Shown here: one piece after another, positions 35,170 through 55,097 of the stretch
Layout: every line of letters begins with the position of its first letter
How positions within the stretch are numbered: the first letter of the stretch is position 1
Assembly: GCA_964344565.1 (NCBI GenBank)
Contig: CAYFNT010000012.1
Span: forward strand, 30,648 to 94,647
Reading direction: 5' to 3'
From: an uncultured bacterium
GTDB lineage: Bacteria; Krumholzibacteriota; Krumholzibacteriia; JACNKJ01
Length of the DNA: 64,000 bases
Program-made: the position numbers and the translations under genes
Notes under the pieces: generated by a model
What the model saw: only the letters and a program-made list of their open reading frames with translations
The model's database searches: none
What the model was told of the DNA's origin: nothing

Positions 35170-35206
35170 GCTTCCTCCTCAGGCGGCCGGCCGGGCCGGC
35201 GCGATT

Positions 35207-38573: not shown

Positions 38574-41500
38574 ATGCGCAAGGCACTGCTTCTCCTGTTC
38601 CTCGCCGGGGCGAGTCTGGCTTCCACCGGCGTCCACACGACCTACCTCTGGCACATGCATCAGCCCATCTACTGGCCGGACGAGAGCGTTTGGACACCCG
38701 GACGTTACCAAACCGCCTACGAAACCCTCCTTGGCGGCTATTGCCAGAACGACCTGGCCGAGATCTTCGGCAAGGACGACCGCATCGGCGACTACCAATG
38801 GTATCCCCGGGATGCGGTGGCCAGCATGCTGGACCTGCCCGAGGCGGGAGCGCAGGTGTCCTTCGCGGGGGCGCTGGTCGAGAACATCGAGAGCCTGGCC
38901 GAGGCAGGCTGGGACGGTGGGGTCTACGCGAGCGACTGGACCTCGCACTACCGCGAGGCGAGGGGCTGGACCACGAGCGCCGGCGAGCCCAGGCTGGAGC
39001 CGCTGGTGGTGGGATTCCATCACGCCATCGCGCCGCTCATGGACGATGTGGCTTTCCGCATGGAGCTCGCCTGCGCCAAGGCCATCTACGACGAGGCCTG
39101 GGGCGACTCGAATTTCTCGCGAGGTTTCTTCCCCGCCGAGATGTGCTTCAGCGAGCGCCTCATTCCCGCCCTGGTCGACGCGGGCCTCGACTGGTCGGTG
39201 GTGGGGGATCTGCATATCGCGCGGGCCTGCGAGAACTATCCCTATCAGGCGAATCTGGACAACTGCGACCCGCCCAACCGGGCCGACCAGGTGAATCCGC
39301 CCCAGAGCGACTGGACCAACCACAGCATTCCACGGGGCGTGACGCTCAAAGTGCCCTACCCTTACGGCTTCACGCCGCACCGGGCCGAGTACGTGGACCC
39401 GTCCACTGGCGAGGTTTCGAACCTGGTGGTGGTGCCGGCCGCCAACGCCATGAGTTGGGACGAGGGTTACGGCATGTTCGGCACGGGTTCCATCGACGCC
39501 ATCGCCGGGAGCAACGATCCTGCGCATCCCATGCTGATTCTGCTGGCCCATGACGGCGACAACGCCTGGAGCGGCGGACACAGCTACTACTACGAATCGG
39601 TGCCCAACTTCTCCCACGCCGCCGCGGACGCGGGCTACACGCCGAGCACGGTGGCGACCTATCTCGAACATCATCCGGTTCCGCTCGACGACGTGGTGCA
39701 TGTGGAGGACGGCGGATGGGTGAACGCCGACGGCGACTTCGGCAGCCCGCAATTCATCAACTGGAACTGGCCGCCGGTGGACGCGGCGGGGAACTTCGAC
39801 ATACCCGGCGGATGGGCGGAGGACGAGCGCAACTGGGCCGTGCTCACGGCGGCGCAGAACGTGGTGGAATCCGCCGAGGCCGTGGGCGGCGCGCCCGATC
39901 CCGAGCGCGTGGTCTTCCCCTTGAGCGGGGCCAGCGCCGTGGAGCGGGCCTGGCATTTCCTGCTGGCGGGCTACGAGAGCGGCTACATGTACTACGGCTC
40001 GTCGCTGGACATGGAAGTGAAGGCCACCCTCGCCTGCAATGCGGCCCTCGAGGCGGCCCTGCCCCTGGCCGAGAGCGGTGCCGATATCGTAGCGCCCAGT
40101 ATCTGGCTGCCCCAACGCCTGCCATGGAATCCGGGCGGCAAGGGCGGCGGCAGCCTCTGGGGATATCCCGGCGGCGCGGGCGCGGACATGAGCCGCGACT
40201 TCTTCGTCTGGACCTTCATCCACGACATCTCGGGACTCTCGCGTGTCGAGATCATGGTCCGCGAGGATCTGGACGGCCACAACGATCCCGGCAGCCACGA
40301 CAACGAAATCTACGCGGGGGGGCCTGAGGTGGGCGCCTGGTCGGCCCTGCCCATGAACCATCGCGCGATGCCCCTGGGCGAGCCCTGGGACATCCCGGGC
40401 ATCGATTTCACGGTGCTGCCCGAGCGCATCGCCGACGAGTACTGGATCGAATTGACGGGCTACGGCGATGTGCTGCTGGACTACTACGTGGAGGCCGAGG
40501 ATTCTCTGGGCAACGTGAAGAGGAGTCCCATCCAGCACGTCTACGTGGGCACGGGCGACGCGGGCGGCGACGGTTCGGCATGGTGGGAGCCCGAACTTCC
40601 GGAAGCCGGCGATTGGATCACCGTCTACTACGATCCTGCCGGTGGACCCCTGGACGGCGCGGCGGAGATCATCCTGCACCACGGCATCAACGGCTGGCAG
40701 GAAGTAGGTGATACGCCCATGGACTGGAACCTCGTCGACGAGCACTGGCATAAGGGCATCCAGCTGCCTGAGCACGCGTCGAGTTTCGAGTTCGTCTTCC
40801 ACGACGGCCTCGGCAACTGGGACAACAACGGCGGCGCCGATTGGATCGTGCCCGTGAGCGGCGGAGGCGGCGGCTTCGTCATGGACGGCCTTCTCGATGA
40901 GGGCGTATTGCAGATCTCCGGCGACGGGATGAACCTCTGGGTCGCCCGCGAAGGCGACCAGCTCTATCTCGCGACCGAGGGTACCGGCGCGACGGGGCTC
41001 GATCACTTCCTCTTCCTGCTCGACGAACCGGGCGCTCCAGTTTCCGCACCCTGGGCCAAGGCGGGACAGGTTCTGCCCTGGGCCTACTATCTCGGGGCCG
41101 AGAGCTCCAACGGCTGGTTCGCTTGGTTCGATGCTGGCAGCAATGTGCAGATCGGTCCCGAGTTCTCATCGGCCCAGGGCGAGGTGCTCGAAGGATTGCT
41201 CGATCTCGACTCGCTCTTTGCATCCGTTCCGCCGGAAAGCCTCTGGGTGGCCGCCGCGGGATACGACGATCCCGACGCAGGTTCCCTGATTGCCCAGGCG
41301 CCCTTCGGCGACGGCGACGGCGACATGGAAGCGCACGAGTACTATCTACTCCTGGACCTGTCCACCCGGGTGGACGAGTCGCCCGAGGCGCCGCTCGCGG
41401 TCTCGCTTTATCCGAATCCCTTCAACCCGGATGTCCGCCTGAGTTTGGACAGCCCGGATGGTGACCTGACAATACGCATCTATGACCTGGAAGGCCGCTA

Positions 41501-41660
41501 CGTCGCGACCCTCCACGAGGGGCTTGCTGCGGAGGGTCGCCACATTTTGGGTTGGAACGGACAGAATGCGCGCGGGTACCCCTGCCCTAGCGGGATCTAC
41601 CTGTTCCAGATCAGCTGTGGAACGGAGGCTCGAAGCTTGAAGGGTCTGCTCCTGAAATAA
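38574..41660 (+). CDS. Secreted GH57-family alpha-glucan hydrolase (amylase/pullulanase-like) with starch-binding module(s) and T9SS type-A CTD
   Basis: Signal peptide MRKALLLLFLAGASLAS. GH57 motif TTYLWHMHQPIYWP. CBM25/26-like module (GDWITVYYDPAGGPLDGAAEIILHHGINGWQ). C-terminus YPNPFNPDVRLSL...IRIYDLEGRYVATL...SGIYLFQISCGTEARSLKGLLLK. The antisense 864-aa ORF is rejected. Confidence 0.8.
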   Translation: MRKALLLLFLAGASLASTGVHTTYLWHMHQPIYWPDESVWTPGRYQTAYETLLGGYCQNDLAEIFGKDDRIGDYQWYPRDAVASMLDLPEAGAQVSFAGALVENIESLAEAGWDGGVYASDWTSHYREARGWTTSAGEPRLEPLVVGFHHAIAPLMDDVAFRMELACAKAIYDEAWGDSNFSRGFFPAEMCFSERLIPALVDAGLDWSVVGDLHIARACENYPYQANLDNCDPPNRADQVNPPQSDWTNHSIPRGVTLKVPYPYGFTPHRAEYVDPSTGEVSNLVVVPAANAMSWDEGYGMFGTGSIDAIAGSNDPAHPMLILLAHDGDNAWSGGHSYYYESVPNFSHAAADAGYTPSTVATYLEHHPVPLDDVVHVEDGGWVNADGDFGSPQFINWNWPPVDAAGNFDIPGGWAEDERNWAVLTAAQNVVESAEAVGGAPDPERVVFPLSGASAVERAWHFLLAGYESGYMYYGSSLDMEVKATLACNAALEAALPLAESGADIVAPSIWLPQRLPWNPGGKGGGSLWGYPGGAGADMSRDFFVWTFIHDISGLSRVEIMVREDLDGHNDPGSHDNEIYAGGPEVGAWSALPMNHRAMPLGEPWDIPGIDFTVLPERIADEYWIELTGYGDVLLDYYVEAEDSLGNVKRSPIQHVYVGTGDAGGDGSAWWEPELPEAGDWITVYYDPAGGPLDGAAEIILHHGINGWQEVGDTPMDWNLVDEHWHKGIQLPEHASSFEFVFHDGLGNWDNNGGADWIVPVSGGGGGFVMDGLLDEGVLQISGDGMNLWVAREGDQLYLATEGTGATGLDHFLFLLDEPGAPVSAPWAKAGQVLPWAYYLGAESSNGWFAWFDAGSNVQIGPEFSSAQGEVLEGLLDLDSLFASVPPESLWVAAAGYDDPDAGSLIAQAPFGDGDGDMEAHEYYLLLDLSTRVDESPEAPLAVSLYPNPFNPDVRLSLDSPDGDLTIRIYDLEGRYVATLHEGLAAEGRHILGWNGQNARGYPCPSGIYLFQISCGTEARSLKGLLLK

Positions 41661-41710: not shown

Positions 41711-43171
41711 GTGGTTTTGCGGATTCTGATCCTGATAATATCAATGATGACAAGCGGATCTGTATACGCACTAACTCTCGATGCAGCGAGGGAGTTTCTG
41801 CAGTGCCTTCGATCATCCCCTGATTCAGCTGAGCAGTTTGTGCATCCCGACGACTTGAAGATTTCTCGTCGATTGGGAATCACCTATCCCGAATCGCAAT
41901 CGAAGGCACTGATCTCCTGGGGATTGACCGAAGAAGAGAGGCGGCGATTGTCCCAGACGACAATCGAGCAGCAGATCCGAATCGATCAGCTGGAAGACGG
42001 CTACTCCAGACTCATCCTCTTTCCAGACGATACCATCGCGTCGCGCTCATGGATCTTCAAGGATGGCAAGCAGGTATCGTCCATCCTCTACAAGGTGAAG
42101 GATTGGGTGCTTCGCGAGTCGAAACATTTCAGGTTTTATCTGAGTGATCCGTCGCGATTCCATGATAAGAATGTCGAGGTGCTCGAGGCATTTCTGGTGG
42201 AGACGGCTGAGTTGCTTGGAATCACGGAATCCCGACTGGAGCGGCTCGAGGACGAGAAGATCATCTATTGCTTCTGCCAGAATCAGGAAGAGATCCGTGA
42301 TCTGACGGGCTTCTTCGCGAGGGGGATGTACATTCTCTCCCATGATCTAATCGTGTCGACCTACAGTTCACACGCCCATGAACTCGCTCATCTCTTGATC
42401 AACTACAGACTTGGCACTCCGCACCTGTTCACTCATCCCATGCTCCTGGAAGGCTTCGCCGTCGCAAGGGGAGGGAGAGGGGGCAGGGCTCCGCGGATTC
42501 AGCATCAATTGGGTGCTTTCTTGCATCGATCCGGTTGGGTGACTCCGGATGATCTGCTGGATGCTGCCTCCTTCTTCCGGCTCAACGCATCCATTTCCTA
42601 TCCGGGGAGCGCCCTGTACAACGAGTTCCTCATCGAATGTCTGGGCATCGAGAAGTACCTGAAGCTCTACCTGGAGTCGGGCGGCGATGCCGAACGAGTC
42701 TCATATCTACGGATCTCTTCAAAGGATTTGCCGGATGAATCCCGCTGGCTGGCCTATCTAGATTCTCAACCCACGATAGGGGCTGTCGCACCGTCGGCTG
42801 GTGCGTTTCCTTCAACTTCGGATCCAGTACTGTTCGAGAACGATCCCGATGCTGATCGCTATAGGTTCGTCCTGCCCGAAGTCGCGGTTCTGGTCGATGG
42901 CTCTGAAGTATCCGACTACAGGAGCTTCCTGTTCAAAGAACTGGTCCCGGACAGGCCCTACTCCGGAGGCCGGTACCTGTTGACCTGTTCACGTGCGGAA
43001 GTCGGGCTGTACGACCTATACACGAATACCATGATCGCCCACTATGCGGCTGCGTTCGCGGAGAATTCTATCGAGATACCCGAGAACGATGGTCGGTACA
43101 GCTTCACAATCGAGGCGGACTTGTTCGATCTGGACATCGATCCACCCCGTTTCGAGTTGGCGAGAGAGTAG
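41711..43171 (+). CDS. Secreted hypothetical protein with HExxH motif (possible zinc metallopeptidase-like); low-GC island
   Basis: GTG start 41711 gives the signal-peptide-like MVLRILILIISMMTSGSVYA. Motif SSHAHELAHLLINYRLG. GC is about 52% versus about 66% for its neighbours. No recognisable family. Confidence 0.5.
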   Translation: MVLRILILIISMMTSGSVYALTLDAAREFLQCLRSSPDSAEQFVHPDDLKISRRLGITYPESQSKALISWGLTEEERRRLSQTTIEQQIRIDQLEDGYSRLILFPDDTIASRSWIFKDGKQVSSILYKVKDWVLRESKHFRFYLSDPSRFHDKNVEVLEAFLVETAELLGITESRLERLEDEKIIYCFCQNQEEIRDLTGFFARGMYILSHDLIVSTYSSHAHELAHLLINYRLGTPHLFTHPMLLEGFAVARGGRGGRAPRIQHQLGAFLHRSGWVTPDDLLDAASFFRLNASISYPGSALYNEFLIECLGIEKYLKLYLESGGDAERVSYLRISSKDLPDESRWLAYLDSQPTIGAVAPSAGAFPSTSDPVLFENDPDADRYRFVLPEVAVLVDGSEVSDYRSFLFKELVPDRPYSGGRYLLTCSRAEVGLYDLYTNTMIAHYAAAFAENSIEIPENDGRYSFTIEADLFDLDIDPPRFELARE

Positions 43172-43203: not shown

Positions 43204-45273
43204 TCAGAGTTTTTCCAATCGCAGCCGATAGCCGAAGACCGCCGGCTTGCCCTTGCCGAGGGTCACGGGAACGCAGACGGCGATCCAGGAACCCTGGTAG
43301 ACGCGCTCGAAGCCGTCCTCGGACATGCTCACCGTTTCGATGGGCTCGCGCCAGATTCTCAAGCCCTCACCCTCGATGATCACCGACAGGCCCGACCACT
43401 CGTCGCGCAATTCGAAGGTCGAGGACGGCGACTCCCAGCCGCGACTGCGAAGCTGCGGCTCGTCGGCCTTCGCGCCGTCCACGAGGAAGTAGCGATCGTG
43501 GGCCTCCGGCGCCAGGAAGTTGAAGTTCCATCCCGAGGCGAAGGTGAGGTTCTTCTCGGTCTCGCCGATGTATTTGAGCTGGTAATCCACTTTCAGGGCG
43601 CGGCCCTCGTCGTCCCAGCGCAGGCTCTTTCGGATCTTCAGGCTGGCATCGTCCAGCTCGCCGGATGACCTCAGCCGCAATTCTCCCTGGGGATCCTCCG
43701 GAACTTCGGCCGAGAAACACCAGGATCGCAGATCGAGCAGGCTCGTCTCGTAGGGGGCCGAATCCGCGCCCGCCTCGTAGATTCGATCCTCGAGACCGGC
43801 TCGGGTGTGCGGATCGTAGACGAGCAGCTTCTCGAGGCCGCGCTCCTTGGCGGCCTTGACCTCGTGGATGGAGAGGGAACTGTCTTCGTCCGGCGAGAGC
43901 GCGTCGGCGACATCGCGATGATAGAATTCGCGGCGCCTGGAGAGCGTGTTGGTCACGGGAAAGGGTTTCTCGAGGAAATCGAGTTCCCTGACCGTACCGC
44001 CGTCGTCGGGCTTCAGGAAGAGCTGGGCATGGGGGCTCGTCCAGTGGATCTCCTCGCGGCCGTCCATGTCGAGGTCGCGCCGAGCCATCGAATAGCCGTT
44101 CGCGGCCAGCATGGCCTCGGCGCGCACGATGCGCTCGAAGACGGCTTGCCGGAGGTGGGGCAGGTAGAGTCCGCCGAAGAGACCGTGCCAGTAGGCGCAG
44201 TTGCACTGGGACTGTAGAACCTGGTCGCGAGCCTGCTCGCGCAGGGCATTGGGAATGCCCTCGGCCGTCTCGCAGCGTTCGCTGGCCAGGAGCATTCGCT
44301 TGTGCATCCAGTGGCTTTCCGGGTACTTCACGAAGAAGTTGCGCCAGAAACCGCCGCGCAGGAATGGGGCGTCATCGGGACGGTCGCCGAGGCTCAGGCC
44401 CAGATTGTGGAAGCGCTCGGCCGCCTTTTCCGGCAGGGACCACTCGCCCATCTCCTGATAACTTCCCGTGGGAAGGTAGGCGCTGCCGCGGGGCTTCCGT
44501 TCGTCGAGCCATTGGGAATAGAGCACCGTGCGCGCGAGTTCGCTCTCCTCGAGGTAGGCGAAGAGCTCGTCGAGGTAGCCTTGCTCGTAGCAGTGTTCAT
44601 GGGTGCCGCGCCAGAGTCCGAACTTCTCGCCGTCGTCGAAGAGCACGCCGAGACCGTTTTCCGGCAGGGCCGCGAGATGCTCGTTCAGCTCCGGGATAGG
44701 GCGGAAAGGGATGAGATAGCGCAGGGCCATGGAAACGGGAAAGATCGCTACGGCGCGGCCGCCTTCCTCGCTGAGGAAGTGTCCGTGCAGGGCCTCGGGC
44801 GCGAACCCCGCTCCGAGGAAATGACTGTCGTCGAGCAGGACATAGTCCACGCCCTCCTCGGCCAACACCCGAGGCAGGTGAGGTTCCCATATCCGCTCGG
44901 CCAGCCAGAAACCGCGGGGGCGAACGCCGAAGAGCTTCTCGACCTCGCCCTGCATGCGGCGGATCTGAGCGCGTTGATCCCGCTCGGGCAGCACGCTGAG
45001 GATGGGCTCCCAGTAGGCTCCGCCGACGACCTCGGCCTGTCCGGCCTCGACCAGAGCGCGCAGTCGTTTCAGATACTCGGGGCGCGCGTTCTTCATCCAC
45101 TCCAGCAGGGGGCCGCTGGTGTGGAAGCTCATCTTCACCGAAGGATGCTTCTCGAGTACGTCGAAGAAGGGCCCGTAGGCGCGCTGAAAAGCGTCTTCGA
45201 TCACATGACCGAAGTTGCCGACGGGCTGGTGGTTGTGCACGCCGAGGGCGAGAGAGGCGCGCGCCGGCATCAT
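43204..45273 (-). CDS. GH57-family 4-alpha-glucanotransferase/alpha-amylase-like enzyme (cytoplasmic)
   Basis: LALGVHNHQPVGNF (GH57 region I), no signal peptide, 689 aa. Last gene of a 7-gene minus-strand operon (43204-52694) with overlapping stop/start codons. Confidence 0.8.
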   Translation of the reverse strand: MMPARASLALGVHNHQPVGNFGHVIEDAFQRAYGPFFDVLEKHPSVKMSFHTSGPLLEWMKNARPEYLKRLRALVEAGQAEVVGGAYWEPILSVLPERDQRAQIRRMQGEVEKLFGVRPRGFWLAERIWEPHLPRVLAEEGVDYVLLDDSHFLGAGFAPEALHGHFLSEEGGRAVAIFPVSMALRYLIPFRPIPELNEHLAALPENGLGVLFDDGEKFGLWRGTHEHCYEQGYLDELFAYLEESELARTVLYSQWLDERKPRGSAYLPTGSYQEMGEWSLPEKAAERFHNLGLSLGDRPDDAPFLRGGFWRNFFVKYPESHWMHKRMLLASERCETAEGIPNALREQARDQVLQSQCNCAYWHGLFGGLYLPHLRQAVFERIVRAEAMLAANGYSMARRDLDMDGREEIHWTSPHAQLFLKPDDGGTVRELDFLEKPFPVTNTLSRRREFYHRDVADALSPDEDSSLSIHEVKAAKERGLEKLLVYDPHTRAGLEDRIYEAGADSAPYETSLLDLRSWCFSAEVPEDPQGELRLRSSGELDDASLKIRKSLRWDDEGRALKVDYQLKYIGETEKNLTFASGWNFNFLAPEAHDRYFLVDGAKADEPQLRSRGWESPSSTFELRDEWSGLSVIIEGEGLRIWREPIETVSMSEDGFERVYQGSWIAVCVPVTLGKGKPAVFGYRLRLEKL

Positions 45274-46661
45274 TCCCCGTCCTGGTCGATGGGGATGACG
45301 ACGACTGAGCCGGGACTCTCGATAGTGCCGGCGGGAATCGGATCTTCCATGGCAGTTTCATTGGCGGCCGCGAGAATTGCGTAAACACCCAATCTAGAAA
45401 GCACCGGCACACTTCCTTCTCCGCCAAGTTCCGGGTAGAGCAGACTCCAGGGGATGGCAAGCTCAAAGGCATCAGTGGAGCGGTTCATGTTTACCACTTC
45501 CACAGGCGTGGCGTACCCAGTACTCGGATCAACTACTGCCATGGTCGGTGGACTATCTCCGTATGCACAGGCGATGAACTCGATGCCGAAATCCGGAACG
45601 GATGAGAAATCGATGTTCTTGTTCATGTATGAGAGTGGGGCCGTGTAGTCCTCTTCCCCGTTTAGCAAACCAAGATCATTCAGGCCAGTCTGGGCACCAT
45701 AGTCTACGTCTAGATAGAAGAGGACGGCATTCGTCCAGGCGGTATTGAACTCACCTGAGAGACCCAAGTATAAAGTATCGCCAGTCCAACTGGTATGAAG
45801 GGAATCAAGCTCCCATCCCACTATCCACCAAGGGCTATCGACGTTGTTGCCGTCGAAGGCTTCCCAGCCCTCGTCGATGATTCCGTCGATAGTTCTCTCG
45901 TTCCAGGGTTGGTCGGGGTTGGCGCTCTCCAAGGGCTCGCCGAAAGCGAAATCGAAACTCGCAACCTGCCCGCCGGACACGCGCACCTGTTCGGTGAGGC
46001 TGCCGTATCCGTTGGCCGTGGCGATGAGCGTGTAGAGGCTGTCGGCGAGGTTGGCGAACTCGTAGTCGCCACCGTCGGCCTGGACCGTCCAGAGCTGGGC
46101 GTCGCCGTGTTCGTTCTCCGCCCAGATCTCGACGGTCGCCGCCGGCGGATCGGGACCCTCGAAGCTCATGCCGCCGGCGATGCCGCCGGTGGCCAGATCG
46201 AGTTCGTGGGAATAGCGCAGGGACTGGTCGTTCATCCAGATCTTGTAGAATCCCGGAGGACCTTCTGTGGAGATCACACAATGGGCGGGATCACCGCTCT
46301 GGAAGACCAGCAGGCCCTCTTCATCGGGGCTGGAGCCGAAATTCTCTGGTTCCCAACTCGCTCCCGTCGTGAACTTGAAACGGATCTCGGTGTCGCTCCC
46401 ATAATCCGATTCCAGTACCGAAACCCAGATCGACCAGACATAGTCTGCCTCAAGGCTCAGATAGTGTCTCGGATCCGTCGGATCCCAGTTCACGCCTGAG
46501 AAATCGCCATTGATTTGAATGTCGGGGAACTCGGATACGTACTCCGAAGGCGGCGCGCCCGGGGCCTCCAGGACGGGACCCTCCGGATTGGGCAGGCAGG
46601 CAGCCATGAGAACCAGCACGATGAAAGCGGGTGCGATGCGTTGCATGCTCACTCCGATCAC
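45270..46661 (-). CDS. Lipoprotein of unknown function (candidate surface glucan-binding protein)
   Basis: Signal peptide plus lipobox (AFIVLVLMAAC). 463 aa with no recognisable catalytic motifs. Operon context with CBM48 proteins. Confidence 0.55.
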   Translation of the reverse strand: MIGVSMQRIAPAFIVLVLMAACLPNPEGPVLEAPGAPPSEYVSEFPDIQINGDFSGVNWDPTDPRHYLSLEADYVWSIWVSVLESDYGSDTEIRFKFTTGASWEPENFGSSPDEEGLLVFQSGDPAHCVISTEGPPGFYKIWMNDQSLRYSHELDLATGGIAGGMSFEGPDPPAATVEIWAENEHGDAQLWTVQADGGDYEFANLADSLYTLIATANGYGSLTEQVRVSGGQVASFDFAFGEPLESANPDQPWNERTIDGIIDEGWEAFDGNNVDSPWWIVGWELDSLHTSWTGDTLYLGLSGEFNTAWTNAVLFYLDVDYGAQTGLNDLGLLNGEEDYTAPLSYMNKNIDFSSVPDFGIEFIACAYGDSPPTMAVVDPSTGYATPVEVVNMNRSTDAFELAIPWSLLYPELGGEGSVPVLSRLGVYAILAAANETAMEDPIPAGTIESPGSVVVIPIDQDGE

Positions 46662-47059
46662 TTCACCACGAGCAGTGAGTTGGTGAAGCCGCCCTCAGAG
46701 GCGGTGGATGGATTGTTGGGATCGGTGTTCCAGGTGTTGTTGTCGATGACGAACTTGTACTGGTAGCGACCGGGGGGAAGGTCCACAACGATGGTCCAGA
46801 TACCGTCCCCGTCGGCATCCTCCATGCGACCGATTGTATTGTCGTAGCGAGCGCTGGGGCTGGCCGTGCCACCCCACCAATTGCCCTCCCAGTTCCCCGC
46901 CAAGGTTACGATGGTCGCGGCGGGAGCCTCATAGGAGAACAATACGCCTCCGTCCACTGGATGGGGAGGTGGCAGGCGCTTCTTGACGATGTTCATGCTG
47001 CAGCCGGATGCCAGGACTAGCATCGGCAGAAGCAGGGGAAAGACTCTCTTAGAAATCAA
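46658..47059 (-). CDS. Small lipoprotein consisting of a CBM48/AMPK-beta-like glycogen-binding module
   Basis: Lipobox LVLASGC. Motif GRYQYKFVIDNNTWNTDPNNP (CBM48/CBM20-like YKF.VDG.W..DP). Confidence 0.65.
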   Translation of the reverse strand: MISKRVFPLLLPMLVLASGCSMNIVKKRLPPPHPVDGGVLFSYEAPAATIVTLAGNWEGNWWGGTASPSARYDNTIGRMEDADGDGIWTIVVDLPPGRYQYKFVIDNNTWNTDPNNPSTASEGGFTNSLLVVK

Positions 47060-49106
47060 AACGCGCCTCCAGGGTCAGCAACCTGGCCTCGCTGAGCGCC
47101 GTTTCAGCTCGATCGACCACGCGGCCGAGGCCCAGATAGGACTCCTTCATGGCCGTATCGTTCAGGCCGTTCTCGGCCAGAAACTCGCGTCTGCCATGGG
47201 GGAGGAACTGCTTGCTCAGGCCGTCGAGCCAGTAAGGATCGACACCCCAGCCCAGCGCGAGATAGCTGCGCTTGTTCAGGTGGTAGCTGATTTCCAGGAA
47301 GCTGGATCCGTAGCCGTGGGAGATGTCCAGGAAGTCCTGATCGTAGCGGGCCATCCTCTGATTGAACAGGAAGGACCATTCCTTGTGGAAACGCCAATCG
47401 AGCTCGACGATCACTTCCCAGTAGAGCGGTTTGCGATCGAGCCGAGTGGAGGCCACGGTGTGGGACAGGTTCAAGAGCATGTCGCCGGCGCTGCCCTCGT
47501 CCAGCAGCATCGCGATTCGCTGATTCAGCCGCGAGGTGCTTCCGTATCCCAAGGTGGTGTAGGCGTCCAGGGGAAGCTTGTCACCCGTGATCCAGCTGTT
47601 GCCGTATCCCACTTCGCCCGCGGCGAAGATGAACTGGTCACCCCAGCCAAGTCCCTCATCGTAGTAGTACTCCGACTGTTCGAGATCGATGCTGTAGTCC
47701 AGTCGTTTCGACTTCCAGGCGATCTCGCCTCCGTAGTGCAGCGCTCTCGCCGATAGCTCCTCGCCGCTTTCGACGAGGATGTTCCGATTCTCCTGGAAAC
47801 TGTGCTTGGCGGAGACGTGGATTCCGAAGGGGAGGAGCGTGTGGCCGGCGAACACGAGGCCGCGGGTCTCCTGGATCTTCCAACTCACTTCGGCCTGCTC
47901 GTTCCAGTTGAATTCCTCCCCCGCCCTGGCTTCCCACTGACGGTCCTTGGCCTGAAGCTTCGACTCGCCCTGGATTCCCTCGATCTCCAGGTTCGACTCG
48001 CCCAGTTCAACTCGATAGCTGAGCGCGTGGAGAAAGTTGTTCTGGACCGTGCGGTAGTAGTAGTAATCGGCAAGGCCGACCATTTCCCCGTCCCAATCCT
48101 GGTACCAGAGGTTGCCCGGCGTGAGGCCGCGGGTCGCATGCCCGAGATAGAGCACTCGGCCGGGACCCAGGCCCCGTGAGAGCTGAAGAACCCAATCGTC
48201 CCGGAAGCCATCGTCCTCGTTGCGATTGTAGTTGATCACATTGTCGAGTTCCTCGCCCTCCTCGACGGTCCGGTCAGGATCTCCCGGACGCCAGGGATTG
48301 GCCACGCTCGCATCGGCCACCATCGCCTTCAGGTCGAGGCCGAGGGGCAGGGTGGCGCGCAGGAGTCCGCCTCTCGCCCCGTAGCCATAGTCATAGCCGT
48401 ATGTGCTCACATCCCCGATCAGGGCGGCGGCTTCGTCGCTGAGGAATGTGGCTTCATTGTCGAATAGCGTGAAGGTGAAGGCCGGTCTCGTCAATACGAG
48501 GCGCGCGCGTTGGAAATTCAGGGCCGTCCGCCACATCTCCGACGGATTGGCGATGTTGTCGGCCGAAAGCTCGACGCGTCCCGCAAGGGATGGGTTGAGT
48601 TCCACGTCGAAAGCCATATTGAGGCTGTGAGTCGGTTTCTCGATGAGAACCCGATCGTTCTCGCTATCGAGAGCCTCGGCCTCGAGCCGGGCATAGTAGA
48701 ATCCGTCGACGTAGAGTTTGCTGTTGAGGGGCGAAGGCTGAGGCCCGCCGCCCGCTTCGACGACTTCGCCCTGAGCATCGACCTTGATCATCGAGTTGCC
48801 GTAGTCTCCGCCAGTCTGGGTGTTCGAAGGGTCGGTGATCCAGTTGCCGTCGACCACGAACTTGTACTGGTGTTCTCCCGGTCCGAGGGGAAGCACGAGA
48901 GTGAAAACGCCATCGCCATCGTTTCCAAAGATGTTGGCGTTGGTGTTCCAGCCGTTGTACTCACCCGCCCAGGCCACGTTGCTCGCGCCGTCATCCCGGT
49001 AGGTGAAGAGGATGCCGTCATCGACCTTCCTGGGGAAATCGGAAGCCAGGGAAGGCAAGGCCAATAGGAGCAGGGCCAGTGACAGTAGTTTGCTCAGTCT
49101 GTTCAT
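47049..49106 (-). CDS. Outer-membrane beta-barrel protein with N-terminal CBM48 glycogen-binding module (candidate alpha-glucan porin)
   Basis: Real start ATG 49106 (MNRLSKLLSLALLLLALPSLASD signal peptide); the 762-aa ORF-track version has a spurious extension. CBM48 motif GPGEHQYKFVVDGNWITDPSNT. About 580 aa with alternating amphipathic segments ending ...ARLLTLEARFDF, a C-terminal Phe as in OMPs. Confidence 0.6.
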   Translation of the reverse strand: MNRLSKLLSLALLLLALPSLASDFPRKVDDGILFTYRDDGASNVAWAGEYNGWNTNANIFGNDGDGVFTLVLPLGPGEHQYKFVVDGNWITDPSNTQTGGDYGNSMIKVDAQGEVVEAGGGPQPSPLNSKLYVDGFYYARLEAEALDSENDRVLIEKPTHSLNMAFDVELNPSLAGRVELSADNIANPSEMWRTALNFQRARLVLTRPAFTFTLFDNEATFLSDEAAALIGDVSTYGYDYGYGARGGLLRATLPLGLDLKAMVADASVANPWRPGDPDRTVEEGEELDNVINYNRNEDDGFRDDWVLQLSRGLGPGRVLYLGHATRGLTPGNLWYQDWDGEMVGLADYYYYRTVQNNFLHALSYRVELGESNLEIEGIQGESKLQAKDRQWEARAGEEFNWNEQAEVSWKIQETRGLVFAGHTLLPFGIHVSAKHSFQENRNILVESGEELSARALHYGGEIAWKSKRLDYSIDLEQSEYYYDEGLGWGDQFIFAAGEVGYGNSWITGDKLPLDAYTTLGYGSTSRLNQRIAMLLDEGSAGDMLLNLSHTVASTRLDRKPLYWEVIVELDWRFHKEWSFLFNQRMARYDQDFLDISHGYGSSFLEISYHLNKRSYLALGWGVDPYWLDGLSKQFLPHGRREFLAENGLNDTAMKESYLGLGRVVDRAETALSEARLLTLEARFDF

Positions 49107-49114
49107 GTCGGACC

Positions 49115-50650
49115 TCAGAACCATGTCTTGAGGGTGAGCTTGAATTCGTCGCGCATCCGTCCACCCGACTCGAAATCGCTGTCGTTCACCAATTCGCCCC
49201 AGTCCCCGTAGTTTTCGGGACCATAGGAGAGGAAGAATTCGAGATTGTCGTGAGGACGGTATTGAATCTGTGTGTAGAGCATCGAACGCGCCTCGATGGC
49301 GTCGCTGGCCACCATGAACCTGTTGTACCATTTCCACTGCGTGGTGAGGTTCAGAGTGGTTTCGAGTCCATAGATGCGTTTCTCGCTGCGGGTGTCCCAG
49401 TCCTTGATCTTGAACTGGGTTTTCAGCCAGGCCAGGCGATTCTCCACGATGAGTTCCACGAGCCAGTCGTAGTGCTTATAGTGGACGCCCTGCCAGGTAT
49501 CGTCGAAACGCTGGTGGCTGAGGTTCACCTTGAAGCCGTTGATGAACTCGACGTAGACGTTCTGGTTCATCCAGCGTTTCGGATCATTGGTCAAGAGCAG
49601 CGTGCGACCATCATCGATGGAATCGTAGATGTAACGATCCACGCGCCGCTTGGCGCCCCATTCGAGTGTGTAGGTGATCGCCCTCTGAGGCAGGATGTAG
49701 TAGCTGTGAAGGTTGTAGCCGACCTCGTTGGTGGCGTCGCCGCCCTGATAGTTCTTGTAGTCGGGCCCCAGGCGCCAGTAGCTGAGATTGACAGTGTAGT
49801 GGCCGAGTGCGTGATTGCCCATCTGGAAGTTGCGCATCTCGGCTTTGATCGCCGCGTCCCTTGGGACGGCGGCCTCCAGCCATGCGAAGGGCTTGCCGCC
49901 GTGCCAATCGGGTAGGTCCCAATGATCGTCGCCGATGGTCTCGGAGGGCACCCGGCTGGCAGCGTACTGGGCCGAAAAATCGGCCACGGGGCTGACCCAT
50001 AGGAAGTCGCCGCTGATCACGCTGTTGTACTGCTTTGTGAAGTCGGTGTCGACGTCGGCGTAGTTCTTCCGAACATAGGACATGCCGAGGTAGGATCCCG
50101 AATCACCCAAACGCCGGGTTCCCCGGAGGAGATGGACGTCATCGGTGACTTCGATGGCATCGGTTCCGTAGTCATCCTGCGAGGAAAAATCGCTGAAGAC
50201 GTAGACACCGTACCAGGGATCGGCCCACCCCTCCATGCGCAGGCCTTGGGCGTTGTCGCCGTCCTTGACGTTGTCTTCCTTGACCAACTCCAGCAGATGG
50301 TTTCCGATCCAGAAGCGCTTTTCGCGGGTGAAGAGGAAGGCTTCGGCGGCCTTGGGCCCGTCCTCGACGCGATACTTGAGATGCCCCTCGTAGAGGAAGA
50401 AGGCCGGTTGTGGCGCTGAGTTGTTCCAGCGGTCCCAGCGCGAACCCAGCTTTGCCCAGAGTTCGCCGCGATGGGACAGGTTCGCCCGCAGCTTCATTTC
50501 GAAGTAATTGCTGGGGCGCCAGAGGTCCCAGCTCTGGTCGTCGTTGACCCGCGTGCCGCCCACATTGCTTTCCCAGTAGCCCTCGAGCACCGTGGCTGCC
50601 TGCGCTGAGACCGAGCCGAGAAGAAGGATCAGAAGGAGCGCTCGCTTCAT
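49115..50650 (-). CDS. Outer-membrane beta-barrel protein (C-terminal ...FKLTLKTWF), unknown specificity
   Basis: Signal peptide MKRALLLILLLGSVSAQA. Tyr/Trp/Asn-rich alternating pattern and a terminal aromatic residue. Confidence 0.55.
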   Translation of the reverse strand: MKRALLLILLLGSVSAQAATVLEGYWESNVGGTRVNDDQSWDLWRPSNYFEMKLRANLSHRGELWAKLGSRWDRWNNSAPQPAFFLYEGHLKYRVEDGPKAAEAFLFTREKRFWIGNHLLELVKEDNVKDGDNAQGLRMEGWADPWYGVYVFSDFSSQDDYGTDAIEVTDDVHLLRGTRRLGDSGSYLGMSYVRKNYADVDTDFTKQYNSVISGDFLWVSPVADFSAQYAASRVPSETIGDDHWDLPDWHGGKPFAWLEAAVPRDAAIKAEMRNFQMGNHALGHYTVNLSYWRLGPDYKNYQGGDATNEVGYNLHSYYILPQRAITYTLEWGAKRRVDRYIYDSIDDGRTLLLTNDPKRWMNQNVYVEFINGFKVNLSHQRFDDTWQGVHYKHYDWLVELIVENRLAWLKTQFKIKDWDTRSEKRIYGLETTLNLTTQWKWYNRFMVASDAIEARSMLYTQIQYRPHDNLEFFLSYGPENYGDWGELVNDSDFESGGRMRDEFKLTLKTWF

Positions 50651-51516
50651 CTCGCTACCTCCCGGCTACCGAAGATGGGTGAGAGCGAGAAGGTTAGGGT
50701 GTTGCCCAGGCGCCCACGGCTCTGGAATGCGAAGTCCATGTTCCAGCGTGCTGCCCTCAGGCCGAAGCCGGCGGTGGCGTAGCGCCCGGTGGTGCCGCCG
50801 CGAATGTGGAAGGCGTCGAAGAAGCGAAGCTCGGAGCCGAAGATGAGTTCGGCTTCCCGTCCGGGGATCGACCTGTACTCGAAGAGCAAGGCGAGATTGC
50901 TCCTCCAGAGGTAGGTGGCGGCCAGGCGGCTCTCGCTTCTCGCCATGCCCCAGGATTCCCCTCCATCGAGCATCTCGATCTCGCTGGCTGCAAGACTCTT
51001 CGCCAGGATCGCGAAGGACAGGTTCCTGCTGTAGGGAAGCAGGACAGAGGCGTCGAAGGTGAAGCCGCGCATGGAATCGATGAGGTCGCTGCCGTCGTAG
51101 CCGGGTACGTCGAGGATCAGACCCCGGAACCGCATGCCAATGCCCAGGTTCCGTCCTAGGAACTTGATACTCCAACCCGCCCCCAGGCTGATCTCGTCTT
51201 CCACCCAGAGATCGCTCAGTCCGTATCGATGCCAGGCGACCGAGAGTCCTCCCGAGCGATAGGGCTGCAGCCAGGCCGCCGTCGATGAACGCACGCCACT
51301 GCCGTACCAGTCGTGCAGCAGGAAGTGTGCGCCTGCTCCCTGCAGATAGGGGAGCCGCGCCGGATTCGCGAGGGATGAGGCCGCATCGGTCTCGATACCC
51401 GTGGCGTTGCCTCCCAGGGCCTCCGAACGTCCGTCCAGTACGATCTGCGAGAAGAGCTCGGCTTGAGTCGATGAAGCGAGGGCCAGTACCCCGAGAAGGA
51501 GCAAGAGTCTCTTCAT
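50647..51516 (-). CDS. Putative PorP/SprF-family T9SS outer-membrane protein (cognate partner of the adjacent type-B CTD cargo)
   Basis: Real start ATG 51516 (MKRLLLLLGVLALASSTQA). N-terminus ELFSQIVLDG...SLANPARLPYLQGAG resembles the PorP/SprF FSQY...NPAyaG signature. Size (about 290 aa) and beta-rich composition fit. It lies immediately downstream of a type-B CTD protein. Confidence 0.45.
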   Translation of the reverse strand: MKRLLLLLGVLALASSTQAELFSQIVLDGRSEALGGNATGIETDAASSLANPARLPYLQGAGAHFLLHDWYGSGVRSSTAAWLQPYRSGGLSVAWHRYGLSDLWVEDEISLGAGWSIKFLGRNLGIGMRFRGLILDVPGYDGSDLIDSMRGFTFDASVLLPYSRNLSFAILAKSLAASEIEMLDGGESWGMARSESRLAATYLWRSNLALLFEYRSIPGREAELIFGSELRFFDAFHIRGGTTGRYATAGFGLRAARWNMDFAFQSRGRLGNTLTFSLSPIFGSREVAR

Positions 51517-52694
51517 CGCAGAACCGCCATGGGAAGGAGGAAACGGTCCACGCCCTCGATCTCCACTCGCGCGTAGTAGAGGCCGGGTTCCTGCAATTCG
51601 CGCTCCTTGTTGCGCCCCTCCCAATAGAAGTCCAGCTGAACATCCGAATCGCCCAGAACGACGAACTCTCGCGTGAGGAAATGGATGCGTCGACCCGTGC
51701 CGTCGTAGACGTCTCCGAAGATTCGATCATGCACCAGTTCGAGAATCGACTCGGTAGTGAGGTTGTGGGAGATGAACATTCGGAAGTGGGCTATATCATG
51801 CAGCCCGTCGCCGTTGGGGCTTATGGCATCGACGAGGCTTTCGGGCTCGGTGGCGCCGATGCTCGAATTGCCCGGATTGAAGAAGAACTCCATGGGTGGG
51901 ATATCGCTGATGACGTCCGCGCTGCGCCACGAGGGTGCCACTCCGATGTCGGGCAACCCATCCAGGTCGCGGTCGGGTCGGAGGATGATGAAATTGTCAA
52001 GGAAGGCGATCTCCCCGGAGTTCTCTGGCATTCCGGGCAGATCGAAGAAACTCGAATTGTCGGGTGCGCAGTCCGGGCCTGACTGTCCGTCGGAACCCGA
52101 AACCACGACCGCGACCAGCCCGATCTCGCGTCCGGCGGGGATGAGCCCGTCGTGGCCGGGGAAGACCTCGGCCCAGGGGATCGCCGCCTCCATCGAGGCG
52201 AAGGGTCGCCCTTGGTTGAAACTTGCAGAAGCGATGAATTGGCTGTTCACCACCAATTGCTCTGCGCTGGTCTGGTCGCCGGTCTGCACTCGCCACATCT
52301 GCGGATCGGTATTCGTGTCCCAGGTCGCGAGGAAGAGGTCTGGAGCCTGGTTCAGGAAGCGCAGCTTTCGTCGCCAGCCCGTGGTGACCAGGTCCATGTC
52401 GGGGATGCCGCTGGAAGGCGTGGTGTCGAAGAACAACATGATGTTGTTGCCCCAGCATCGACCGTCGACGGCGACGAAAAGGGAGTCGGTGTTCCAGGTG
52501 GCACGAATCTGATTGATGTCGTTGTTTTCGCCCCAGCGGGAATCGAAGGCGAGTTCTTCCCCGGGGTTGAAGAACACTTCCTCGGACTGGAAGTCCGAAC
52601 TGTCGCCGTCGATGACTATGCTGCGATCGGTAGCCGTGTAAGCCTGGGCCGAAATCGCAAGTCCGATCAAGAGGCAGGTGGACAATCGCCGCAT
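51513..52694 (-). CDS. Secreted protein with T9SS type-B C-terminal sorting domain (gliding-motility-type CTD); N-terminal putative carbohydrate-binding domain
   Basis: Signal peptide MRRLSTCLLIGLAISAQA. C-terminus ISPNGDGLHDIAHFRMF...DRIFGDVYDGTGRRIHF...FYWEGRNKERELQEPGLYYARVEIEG matches the type-B CTD pattern (SPNGDG.ND.F.I...I.....G..V...........W.G.......PG.Y.Y...). First gene of the operon. Confidence 0.6.
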   Translation of the reverse strand: MRRLSTCLLIGLAISAQAYTATDRSIVIDGDSSDFQSEEVFFNPGEELAFDSRWGENNDINQIRATWNTDSLFVAVDGRCWGNNIMLFFDTTPSSGIPDMDLVTTGWRRKLRFLNQAPDLFLATWDTNTDPQMWRVQTGDQTSAEQLVVNSQFIASASFNQGRPFASMEAAIPWAEVFPGHDGLIPAGREIGLVAVVVSGSDGQSGPDCAPDNSSFFDLPGMPENSGEIAFLDNFIILRPDRDLDGLPDIGVAPSWRSADVISDIPPMEFFFNPGNSSIGATEPESLVDAISPNGDGLHDIAHFRMFISHNLTTESILELVHDRIFGDVYDGTGRRIHFLTREFVVLGDSDVQLDFYWEGRNKERELQEPGLYYARVEIEGVDRFLLPMAVLR

Positions 52695-52801
52695 GATCCC
52701 TCCCAGGAAAGCGAATCGACAAGCTAACAGATCGCCTATCCATCATCAAGGGTGGTCGACACGGGCCTGGGAACTTGGTAGGAATAGGGGCGGGAGGCCC
52801 C

Positions 52802-55078
52802 ATGAGAACCACCCTGATCGCTCTGATCTCGATACTGTCGGCGGTCCACGCCGAGACTCCGCTGGAAGGCGGCGTGCCCTTCGCGCCCCTGGCGCCCGGT
52901 GAGCTGAGCCGCGAGGTCATCCTGTCCGGCGGCGGGGCCACGCACTTCGCCTGCGAGAGCCACGACGAGCACCGCCGCGCCTACCACGGTCTCTACAATC
53001 GCATGCACGAGTTCCTAGACGGCTGGCGATTCCGCGTGGGGGAGCGGATCCTTCATCCCGCTGACGGTTCCCTCGAACTCTGGCCCTGGACCTTCCATCG
53101 CAGCTACGAAGGCGGGCCGATCGAATCGCTCTTCATGCCGAGGGGTATTCCCGGCGTGATCGTCTCGCTCTCCGGCGCGGCCGGAAACTGCGAGTTCGAA
53201 CCCCACATCGACATGCGTTTCATATGGGACGTTCCCCGCCCCGACTACGAGGTCGAATGGAACGAACGGCTGGGCGCGCTCTTCATCCGCCGAGTCGAAT
53301 TCGAACCGCCGGCGGAAGTGCCACGAGTCGTCGCCATCGTGCCGGGATTCTGGTCCACCTGGCGCTACGCCGACGCCTGGCTTCCCAACGACTACACCCG
53401 CGACAAGGCGCGCCGGGCCATGGAGAAGGCGAACCCATGGATCCCGGGCAGCTTTCACCTGGAGCTTTACGAGGGCGACGTGGCCGATTTCGCCGTGGGC
53501 CTCGGCGCCGATGAACGCGAGGCCTTCGCCGTGGCCCGCGATCTGCTCGACAGGCAGGATCTGCTGCGCGCCGAAGCCCGCGACCACTTCACGGAGCTCT
53601 CGACACGCGTCCCCCGCACCAGTGATGAACGCCTGAACAAGGCTCTCACCTGGGCGCGCTACTCCATGGACCAGCTCATCATGAACTCGCGGGGACCGGG
53701 CATCTACGCGGGCTACCACTGGTTCACCAACTACTGGGGACGCGACACCTTCATCTCGCTGCCGGGCGCCTGCCTGGTCAGCGGCGACTTCGAGCGGGCG
53801 CGCGCCATCCTGGCGAGTTTCGCAGACTATCAGCTCACCGATCCGTCGAATCCGCGCGAAGGGCGCCTGCCCAACATCGTGAATCCCGACAATCTGCAGT
53901 ACGCGGGCGTGGACGGTACCTGGTGGTGGGTGAGGGCCCTGCGCATCTATCTGGACTACACCCGCGACCTGGACTTCATGCGCGAGATGCGTCCGGTGGT
54001 GGACCGGGCGATTGCGGGCGCGCTGCGTCACGCGGTCGACGAACACGGCCTGCTCACCCACGGCGATGGCGAGACCTGGATGGACGCCGGCGGCGAGGTC
54101 AATCCGCGCTCGCCCCGCGGCAACCGCGCCGTGGAAGTCGAGGCCCTGTGGATCGACGGCCTAGATTCGGCCGCCCTTTTCGCCCGTGTGGACGGTGACT
54201 CGGCCGCGATGCGCCGCTACCAGACCCTCGCCGACAAGGCGCGGGCATCATTTCTCGAGTTGTACACCCGGGTGGACGGATTGGGACTCGCCGACCATCT
54301 GAATGTTGACGGAAGTCAGGATCTGCAGATCCGGCCGAATCAGCTGCTTGCGATTACGATTCCAAGAGGCTCTCCACGGAAGAACAGGATCTGGGGAGCG
54401 GAATGGATTCCCGAGGCGATCGAACTCGATGTCGTGAAAACGGTGATGCAGCATCTCGTCAGGGAAAACGGAGTCACTAGTTTGAGCCCATCGGATGATT
54501 CGTGGATTCCTCGACATGTGGATTGGACCAGAAGTCATTTCGATGACGCATACCATAACGGTGACGTGTGGCTATGGCTTTCTGGCGCTGCGATGGAAGC
54601 TAGAGAGGTGGCGAATTGGAGTTTCTATCATCGCACGAGGGAGCAAATGAATGTCCTGATAGAGGACACCATTGAGCATGGGGCCCTAGGTAGCCTCCGG
54701 GAAATCCGTGATGGAGAGCTTTCCCTGAAGGAGGACTATGGGGGCGCTACCAGCCAGGCCTGGTCACTCGCGGAGTTGCTTCGGGTTCAGTTCGAGTCGG
54801 TTCTAGGAATCAAACCTCTCCTCCTGGACAGGTTAGTCCTGTGGGATCCGGCTTCGGTCGGTCTGCATGCCCGAGTATTCTTGGGTGGTCAGGAATGGAG
54901 TGTTTCGCTGGAGGAAGAGAAGCCTTCGAATATTGTACACGTGTACAATGGGTGGAAGTACGTAGGTGGAACATGGCCCGACGGAATCAATGGCTGGGAA
55001 GTACAATCTCCCAATCGTAGCCCAGAGACATTGACCGAGCAGGGGCTGCCCTACAGGGAGTCCGGTGAGGTTTGGTAG
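52802..55078 (+). CDS. Secreted amylo-alpha-1,6-glucosidase / glycogen-debranching enzyme (GDE_C family)
   Basis: Start ATG 52802 (MRTTLIALISILSAVHA signal peptide, SD GGGAGG). GDE_C motifs GYHWFTNYWGRDTFISLPG and YHNGDVWLWLSG. The 3' 830 nt have markedly lower GC (about 52%). Contains the ATTGTACACGTGTACAAT palindrome at 54932-54949. Confidence 0.8.
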   Translation: MRTTLIALISILSAVHAETPLEGGVPFAPLAPGELSREVILSGGGATHFACESHDEHRRAYHGLYNRMHEFLDGWRFRVGERILHPADGSLELWPWTFHRSYEGGPIESLFMPRGIPGVIVSLSGAAGNCEFEPHIDMRFIWDVPRPDYEVEWNERLGALFIRRVEFEPPAEVPRVVAIVPGFWSTWRYADAWLPNDYTRDKARRAMEKANPWIPGSFHLELYEGDVADFAVGLGADEREAFAVARDLLDRQDLLRAEARDHFTELSTRVPRTSDERLNKALTWARYSMDQLIMNSRGPGIYAGYHWFTNYWGRDTFISLPGACLVSGDFERARAILASFADYQLTDPSNPREGRLPNIVNPDNLQYAGVDGTWWWVRALRIYLDYTRDLDFMREMRPVVDRAIAGALRHAVDEHGLLTHGDGETWMDAGGEVNPRSPRGNRAVEVEALWIDGLDSAALFARVDGDSAAMRRYQTLADKARASFLELYTRVDGLGLADHLNVDGSQDLQIRPNQLLAITIPRGSPRKNRIWGAEWIPEAIELDVVKTVMQHLVRENGVTSLSPSDDSWIPRHVDWTRSHFDDAYHNGDVWLWLSGAAMEAREVANWSFYHRTREQMNVLIEDTIEHGALGSLREIRDGELSLKEDYGGATSQAWSLAELLRVQFESVLGIKPLLLDRLVLWDPASVGLHARVFLGGQEWSVSLEEEKPSNIVHVYNGWKYVGGTWPDGINGWEVQSPNRSPETLTEQGLPYRESGEVW
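54932..54949. promoter_or_regulatory. 18-bp perfect palindrome ATTGTACACGTGTACAAT (candidate LacI-family operator) about 150 nt upstream of the malE-like gene
   Basis: Perfect palindrome with the TG-N4-CG-N4-CA core. It also contains a TACAAT -10-like hexamer. It lies inside the 3' end of the GDE gene and upstream of the ABC transporter genes. Confidence 0.5.
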
Positions 55079-55097
55079 ATTCGCAAGGAGAGTTACT

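Follow-up and report, generated by a model that had tools for sequence, protein, structure and literature searches.

The 64-kb window analysed here (64,000 nt of contig CAYFNT010000012.1 of assembly GCA_964344565.1, from an uncultured member of the Krumholzibacteriota; positions refer to this stretch unless a locus is named) harbours at 43204-52694 an operon of seven minus-strand genes, which we named g1 to g7. We found that the first five of them recur, with their order unchanged, in dozens of divergent genomes, an arrangement far beyond chance. They encode a protein with a C-terminal domain (CTD) resembling type IX secretion system (T9SS) CTDs, a small barrel of the PorV/PorQ type, two large predicted barrels, and a small lipoprotein; the second large barrel and the lipoprotein each carry a carbohydrate-binding module of family CBM48. 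On balance, we lean slightly towards the view that g1-g5 represent a dedicated outer-membrane module for the acquisition of alpha-1,4/1,6-glucans (starch, glycogen, large dextrins), working without SusC/SusD, LamB or TonB-dependent features in lineages which are mostly of the Fibrobacterota-Chlorobiota-Bacteroidota (FCB) type. An earlier note, made from the sequence of the window alone, had already proposed an alpha-glucan system of the outer membrane lacking SusC and SusD, and this part of it is supported by our data: matches to Plug, TonB_dep_Rec and SusD are absent.

All seven open reading frames (ORFs) were confirmed and show coding-type codon bias. They overlap or abut throughout, as had been recognised before. 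The start and stop codons overlap in an ATGA at the junctions between g1 (51513..52694, 393 aa) and g2 (50647..51516, 289 aa), between g2 and g3 (49115..50650, 511 aa), and between g6 (45270..46661, 463 aa) and g7 (43204..45273, 689 aa), and in a GTGA between g5 (46658..47059, 133 aa) and g6. The junction between g3 and g4 is the only gap, of 8 nt, and g4 overlaps g5 by 11 nt, provided that g5 starts at TTG. The true start of g2 is the ATG at 51516 (MKRLLLL...) and not position 51624. The overlapping start and stop codons suggest that g1-g7 are likely translationally coupled, and a promoter and terminator scan of the operon revealed no internal signal above the shuffled expectation. Signal peptides of the signal peptidase I type are present on g1-g4. 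The start of g5 differs among public gene calls, which give a protein of 121 or 133 aa (46658-47059 in the window; loci L075 and L077); a complete lipoprotein signal peptide exists only in the longer form, the TTG start of which overlaps the end of g4.

The g3 profile was used to scan one genome per GTDB species, and after removal of five duplicates from 74 loci, hidden Markov models (HMMs) of g1-g6 were run on all ORFs of the remaining 69. The complete series g1-g2-g3-g4-g5 was found at 47 of these 69 loci, and the order was the same in all 47 loci holding the five genes. The remaining 22 loci are cut by a contig end or interrupted and contain consecutive subsets (such as 1234, 2345 or 345), and a deviating gene order was detected at none of the 69. 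By contrast with this five-gene unit, g6 is present at only 16 of the 69 loci and a cassette-linked g7 at a single one, that of the closest relative. The seven-gene operon of the earlier note thus describes the packing in this genome, while the conserved unit is g1-g5, with g6 and g7 as lineage-specific additions. In flanks of approximately 10 kb, 42 of the 69 loci contain a GH13 (glycoside hydrolase family 13) catalytic domain, belonging to a CBM48-rich GH13, and 32 to 34 contain MalE, MalF and MalG. The carriers, all of them metagenome-assembled genomes (MAGs), belong to Krumholzibacteriota, Cloacimonadota, Neomarinimicrobiota, Fibrobacteraceae and Latescibacterota, and include a 'Gemmatimonas' MAG and unclassified bacteria. 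In an independent look-up of four relatives (a Krumholzibacteriota MAG, two Cloacimonadota genomes and a MAG labelled Spirochaetes), the same order was found beside GH13, MalEFG or a glycogen debranching enzyme (GDE) in three; the Spirochaetes-labelled locus contains g1-g4 without those neighbours. With the gene order preserved in several candidate phyla, the functional link is much stronger than the window by itself could show. In full-text literature searches we found no published description of the cassette. One Candidatus Stygibacter species (Cloacimonadota) carries it (L035), and the Ca. Stygibacter genome paper reports secreted glycoside hydrolases and Mal transport and does not describe the cassette genes.

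A few of the loci deserve a separate comment. The cassette contigs L045, L059 and L071 are labelled as a Thermoplasmata archaeon, a member of the Patescibacteria group and Verrucomicrobia, respectively; these labels are probably binning errors, because the other carriers are diderm and mostly of the FCB type. In two Cloacimonadota loci (L043:2931-4426 and L035:3233-4530) g3 is split in two ORFs by a frameshift or an assembly error, and in L043 neither g4 nor g5 follows g3, despite approximately 9 kb of remaining contig.

Both large proteins, which had been suspected to be outer-membrane barrels, were predicted as beta-barrels by AlphaFold2 (AF2). In the model of g3 (mean confidence score, pLDDT, 84.9) the first strand follows directly on the signal peptide and 24 strands were counted. 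The model of g4 (pLDDT 76) is an all-beta barrel, in which the DSSP string gives 22 strands when residues 290-295 and 303-313 are merged as one kinked strand. In this barrel the strands are joined in alternation by eleven longer loops and ten short turns, the pattern usually seen where the loops are extracellular and the turns periplasmic. The barrel part of g4 (aa 130-685, 47049..48719) contains a conserved helical last loop and ends with ...RFDF, and g3 ends with ...KTWF; a C-terminal Phe is found in 63 of 64 g3 orthologues and 56 of 59 g4 orthologues. Together with g2 (see below), three barrels are predicted for the operon, and not two as counted initially.

Profile comparison shows that g3 and g4 are distant paralogues. 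When 59 g4 barrels were aligned to 64 g3 sequences with hhalign, they matched with 94% probability (E 1.4e-7) over the first 180 to 200 residues, approximately; smaller alignments had given 45%. In effect, g4 consists of a CBM48 and a g3-like barrel. Neither g3 nor the barrel part of g4 corresponds to a Pfam or NCBIfam family, and outside its CBM48 g4 has no sequence relative in the PDB. More generally, when g1, g2, g3, g6 and the g4 barrel were compared with the PDB by sequence, the only informative matches were those to CBM48, to FlgD-like tails and to PorV which are described here. By structure, g3 is matched best by a protein-translocating usher. In an exhaustive HMMER search for which the barrel of g4 alone served as query, only 97 representatives were retrieved among 1.84 billion proteins, nearly all of them 600-790 aa long and with the barrel beginning near residue 125-150. 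The closest full-length relatives of g4 number about ten, one of them labelled Candidatus Krumholzibacteriota, and relatives of g3 are more numerous.

Sequence features of TonB-dependent transporters were not found in these barrels. The Plug family (PF07715) has no match in g3 or g4, nor among 39 g3 orthologues, and TonB_dep_Rec, SusD and LamB (PF02264) match none of the cassette proteins. For g4 a 22-strand barrel is predicted, without a TonB_dep_Rec match, and in place of a SusC-type plug its N-terminus is occupied by the CBM48, which begins approximately 8 residues after the signal peptide.

The CBM48 modules, first proposed from motifs, were found to be genuine. The module of g4 (aa 26-117, 48756..49031, behind a signal peptide at aa 1-22) matches PF16561 with E 3.7e-13 and 49.9 bits, well above the cut-off of 26.8, and the CBM of AMPK beta with 1.2e-10 as a single sequence and 2.5e-17 as a profile. 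The glucan contacts of AMPK beta1 (W100, K126, W133 and N150) have their counterparts in g4: W53, K82 and N104 are present in 59 of 59 orthologues and W89 in 58. Ten distant members of the g4 family were sampled, and all ten carry CBM48. The fusion of CBM48 and barrel is therefore both ancient and invariant, and the system appears to be specific to alpha-glucans. One member of the g4 barrel family (P0180, 922 aa) contains three tandem CBM48 before the barrel.

The lipoprotein g5 (lipobox LASG-C) consists of a basic tether and a second CBM48, which also scores above the cut-off (PF16561, 1.8e-9 and 38.1 bits; PF02922, 5.5e-5; AMPK beta1 CBM, 2.2e-6). Its binding residues W, K, W and N are in place and are kept in the orthologue consensus. 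The lipobox and the tether, IVKKRLPPPH in the window, are conserved, with the consensus x3-[IFV][IV][KR]xR[LV]xxP[H]; the core residues I, R and P of the tether are kept in at least 80% of 44 aligned sequences, across all phyla. The tether follows immediately on the lipid-attachment Cys, and its conservation points to a docking contact of a specific kind and not to a free linker. The next gene, g6, encodes a second lipoprotein, as annotated before (lipobox LMAA-C). This accessory and variable protein consists of a CarboxypepD_reg-like domain and a domain of the type found in g1, and has no sequence match in the PDB. When g5 and g6 were compared with the SusD/RagB families of the tetratricopeptide repeat (TPR)-like type, no match was obtained, and only CBM48 and CarboxypepD_reg were found.

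The genes around the cassette encode a starch and maltodextrin pathway, and here the earlier note was right in calling it complete: GH57, GDE, GH13, MalEFG and phosphorylase are all present. Downstream of the operon, on the plus strand, lies a gene for a secreted GH57 (38574..41660) with a signal peptide, CBM53 and a T9SS CTD, probably an extracellular or surface enzyme which cleaves alpha-glucans. Upstream of g1 and divergently from it, also on the plus strand, a GDE-type debranching enzyme (52775-55078) and a MalE-like, solute-binding lipoprotein (55065-56342) are encoded, followed by a GH13 with three CBM48 (56414-59311) and by MalF and MalG (59321-61062); a glucan phosphorylase is encoded on the minus strand (61131-62804). 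Both GH13 and GDE are expected to be periplasmic, since each has a signal peptide but lacks a CTD. The last gene of the operon, g7, appears to encode a cytoplasmic GH57 4-alpha-glucanotransferase of the Thermococcus litoralis type: it has the three Pfam domains GH57, AmyA-A_glucT_m and AmyA-gluTrfs_C, matches the T. litoralis enzyme 1K1W with 2.6e-130 over residues 5-499, and has no signal peptide.

The protein g1 is composed of a signal peptide, a conserved N-domain of approximately 230 aa and a T9SS-type CTD of approximately 100 aa. The CTD had been labelled as type B, and this label was rejected: the window protein matches CHU_C (PF13585) with E 0.065 and 13.8 bits only, where the cut-off is 27, and the type-B model TIGR04131 was found in one of 26 orthologues. 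In the tails of these 26 orthologues, FlgD_ig was detected in 22, the type-A model TIGR04183 in 17, the PorU model in 14, the PorZ model in five and CHU_C, weakly, in 13. The window protein itself has no match to the type-A CTD models (TIGR04183 and PF18962) at E <= 0.05. It is the evidence from the family that favours a type-A, PorU- and PorZ-like CTD over type B. Three further cargo proteins of the window have tails which the CTD profile of g1 also recognises: the secreted GH57, a CotH/LTD/beta-helix protein (23193-26627, plus strand) and a GATase_4-like protein (6706-7917, plus strand). All three match FlgD_ig and two also Por_Secre_tail. Evidently the organism has many T9SS-type cargo proteins. 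From the several CTD proteins in the window and from the literature, in which T9SS genes are reported for other FCB phyla (PMC11285876), we infer that a T9SS is present.

The N-domain of g1 has no match in Pfam, NCBIfam or, by sequence, the PDB. Its homologue is the C-terminal domain in g6 (HMM cross-match 1e-11). A relationship to Glucodextran_C was rejected (hhalign, 0.1% probability); in the giant orthologues of g1 this domain lies in an inserted region and not in the N-domain. Such giants of 1760-2100 aa occupy the g1 position in a distant clade comprising Fibrobacteraceae, Latescibacterota and deeper Krumholzibacteria (L039:3014-9055, L042:3756-9053, L046:3032-9031 and L064:2870-9016), and in them the N-domain and the tail bracket an insert of approximately 1400 aa with CarboxypepD_reg, Big_1/invasin and Glucodextran_C domains.

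The small barrel g2, with a signal peptide and a FadL-like fold of the PorV/PorQ family type, had been described as PorP/SprF-like. This assignment did not hold, since the window protein has no match to PorP/SprF models at E <= 0.1 and its orthologues match PorV/PorQ better. The PorV/PorQ model NF033709 matches g2 with 2.1e-11 and 44 bits, below the curated cut-off of 90 bits, and it matches all 44 orthologues (best E 2.7e-20), 42 of which are also matched by PorV2 (NF052325), 27 by PorV and 21 by PorQ. Matches of the same 44 proteins to PorP/SprF (TIGR03519 in 25, PF11751 in ten) are weak and always below those to PorV/PorQ. The g2 family profile further matches PorV of Flavobacterium johnsoniae (6h3i_F) with 2.3e-6, and, weakly, the FadL-like TodX and CymD. 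We conclude that g2 is related to PorV/PorQ at the superfamily level (FadL-like), judging from these profile matches, and that it does not count as a true PorV or PorQ.

Taken together, the following path of the substrate can be proposed. Outside the cell, the T9SS-secreted GH57 and the surface protein g1 would act on the glucan. According to the published model, cognate PorV-like barrels retain uncleaved CTDs and thereby anchor a protein at the surface, and precedents for such pairs are PorZ-PorQ, PorU-PorV and type-B cargo bound to PorP/SprF-like barrels (PMC10202324, PMC9143113). In the same way g1 would be exported by the T9SS and its uncleaved CTD held by g2, as homology and the invariant adjacency of the two genes suggest. 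Long or branched dextrins may cross the outer membrane by a wide opening which g3, with about 24 strands, and g4, with about 22, would provide, and signs of TonB-dependence are absent. The fold of both barrels comes from prediction, and their transport role is presumed. At the periplasmic mouth, the CBM48 of g4 and the tethered CBM48 of g5 could bind the incoming chain and bias its movement inwards, and it is tempting to speculate that they work as a ratchet. The chain would then be passed to the periplasmic GH13 with its three CBM48 and to the debranching enzyme. A debranching enzyme in the periplasm implies that branched, bulky dextrins enter this compartment, which fits with large barrels. 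Following standard pathway logic, MalEFG would import the products, and the cytoplasmic g7 and phosphorylase would process them. Beyond the acquisition module as such, these steps would amount to a new class of importer, with heteromeric, paralogous, plug-less barrels of 22 and 24 strands, no TonB energy, a periplasmic CBM48 ratchet, and a T9SS cargo permanently docked on its private PorV/PorQ-like barrel. This more specific proposal is tentative and less likely than not, although its chance of being right is a real one.

The side of the membrane on which the CBM48 modules are located matters for the ratchet step of this proposal, and not for the uptake role. In the reading of the earlier note, the CBM48 of g4 and the lipoproteins g5 and g6 would be exposed at the cell surface, where they would capture starch in a Sus-like manner, and the barrels would take up the dextrins after cleavage. 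Several observations are consistent with such an arrangement: the CBM48 binding sites are intact, g6 and the surface protein g1 have a domain in common, and the spacing of 20-30 residues between the CBM48 core and the first-strand motif could thread a wide barrel. Further, surface lipoproteins are common in the related Bacteroidota. However, the N-terminus of a 22-strand barrel is normally periplasmic, and since the N-terminus of g4 lies on the short-turn side according to the DSSP pattern, the fused CBM48 is predicted to be periplasmic as well; surface capture by this module is topologically doubtful and we do not accept it. The constancy of the 20-30-residue spacing in all g4 orthologues also argues for a periplasmic placement of the g4 and g5 modules, as does the apparently periplasmic location of the system's debranching enzyme and of its CBM48-rich GH13, which shows that periplasmic CBM48 would be normal in this organism. 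In addition, the tether of g5 is basic (KKR), unlike the export signal of Bacteroidota lipoproteins, which is acidic, and a surface protein delivered by the T9SS already exists in g1. All in all, surface capture appears rather unlikely to us. A third arrangement, in which the CBM48 would serve as a plug inside the barrel in the style of TonB-dependent transporters, is unlikely as a general rule, since one family member contains three modules in tandem, and this again speaks for the periplasm.

The barrels could also have a different purpose altogether. If they were not channels, they could form an attachment complex associated with the T9SS, which displays g1 and perhaps amylolytic enzymes, and dextrins would enter through unrelated porins. 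The similarity of g2 to PorV/PorQ and of the g1 tail to PorU/PorZ is in line with this possibility, as are the giant, adhesin-like proteins at the g1 position of the distant clade and the protein-translocating usher as the best structural match of g3. However, an anchoring platform would leave two large, conserved, plug-less barrels unexplained, and would account neither for the CBM48 that g4 invariably carries at its periplasmic end nor for a tethered lipoprotein with CBM48. We therefore regard it as improbable. Export or anchoring of an alpha-glucan which the cell makes itself, for instance as a polymer of capsule or biofilm, with a periplasmic CBM feeding the polymer outwards, is very improbable, because the scanned loci show no cassette-linked glycosyltransferase or synthase and the constant partners (GH13, GDE, MalEFG importer, phosphorylase) are catabolic.

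Several points weigh against an acquisition module of the proposed kind. The matches of g2 and of the g1 CTD are all below the curated family cut-offs, and T9SS core genes were not seen within the 64-kb window. The strand count of g4 depends on merging the kinked strand at 290-313, and if the number of strands were odd, or if the linker ran through the lumen, the CBM48 would lie outside. For g5 and g6, the sequence is compatible with the surface as well as with the periplasm in these phyla. Moreover, the support comes from sequence and predicted structure, and every carrier is an uncultured MAG.

Among known systems, the closest in function is the Bacteroidota Sus/SusCD utilisome, which is also a locus-encoded outer-membrane apparatus for one class of glycans. 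Both combine a barrel of about 22 strands, lipoproteins, starch-binding modules, surface or periplasmic amylases and an inner-membrane importer, and in both large fragments are likely imported for breakdown in the periplasm. Unlike Sus, the cassette has no plug, no TonB box, no TonB_dep_Rec match and no SusD-like lipoprotein; its binding module is joined to the barrel at the N-terminus, it has a second, paralogous barrel of 24 strands, and its surface component is apparently delivered and held by T9SS-type parts (CTD and PorV/PorQ-like barrel) and not by lipoprotein export. The earlier note, too, saw the outer-membrane parts as different from those of Sus.

The pairs PorZ-PorQ, PorU-PorV and type-B cargo with PorP/SprF resemble the cassette in that the gene of the CTD protein g1 is located directly upstream of the small FadL-like barrel g2. 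In contrast to them, g2 is below all family cut-offs (44 against 90 bits), the CTD of g1 is not clearly of type B, and g1 and g2, a putative pair, are parts of a glycan-uptake cassette and not of a secretion, sortase or gliding apparatus. LamB, CymA and chitoporin, which like the proposed importer let oligosaccharides pass without energy from TonB and are associated with a MalEFG-type ABC importer, have 14-18 strands, greasy slides and no fused binding module, where g3 and g4 are predicted to have about 24 and 22 strands. There is no sequence relationship between them and g3/g4, and the family LamB PF02264, for which a match is absent, represents an 18-strand trimeric porin. The modules of g4 and g5, finally, match CBM48 of the AMPK beta, SEX4 and isoamylase type, with the Trp-Lys-Trp-Asn contacts in place. 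The known modules sit on enzymes or kinase scaffolds, unlike those of the cassette, and in our literature searches we found no description of a CBM48 fused to an outer-membrane barrel or present alone as a small lipoprotein.

The identification of this cassette is important for several reasons. The capture of glycans at the outer membrane is understood mainly from SusCD of Bacteroidota and from the porins and TonB-dependent transporters of proteobacteria. The uptake of polysaccharides is essentially unexplained in the uncultured FCB-type phyla of sediments, digesters and the ocean, such as Cloacimonadota, Neomarinimicrobiota, Krumholzibacteriota, Latescibacterota and relatives of Fibrobacterota. 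For them the cassette is a concrete and testable uptake candidate for one abundant class of substrates. If our reading as an importer is correct, the cassette is a previously undescribed, glycan-specific acquisition system of the outer membrane, assembled from different parts than Sus, and would be its functional counterpart in mostly FCB-type phyla outside Bacteroidota. If the CBM48 modules work in the periplasm as proposed, they would represent a new way to drive polymer import without TonB. Further, if g2 indeed binds g1, T9SS-type anchoring would gain a role in nutrient uptake, and this would be the first such co-option of T9SS attachment parts. The conservation and the architecture of the cassette would surprise specialists in glycan uptake and in T9SS alike. 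Last but not least, three unannotated protein families are defined here, the g3 barrel, the CBM48-barrel fusion and the domain shared by g1 and g6, and the five genes in fixed order could be useful as a simple genomic marker for alpha-glucan use in MAGs.

Some other genes of the window should be mentioned. Between the secreted GH57 and the operon lies an ORF of 486 aa (41711-43171, plus strand) with a signal-peptide-like N-terminus and no Pfam family, which coincides with the stretch of lowest GC content in that part (0.58). A protein of 3053 aa (10357-19518, minus strand) contains glucoamylase-like and GH94 supersandwich and catalytic domains, an architecture like that of the giant enzymes of the cyclic beta-1,2-glucan synthase type. 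Anaerobe-type energy genes are located on the minus strand at 596-2062, 29095-30975 and 33169-37825, and encode an MttB-family methyltransferase, an FlpD/MvhD-like ferredoxin protein, an NADPH-dependent Fe-S oxidoreductase and a 2-oxoacid:ferredoxin oxidoreductase.

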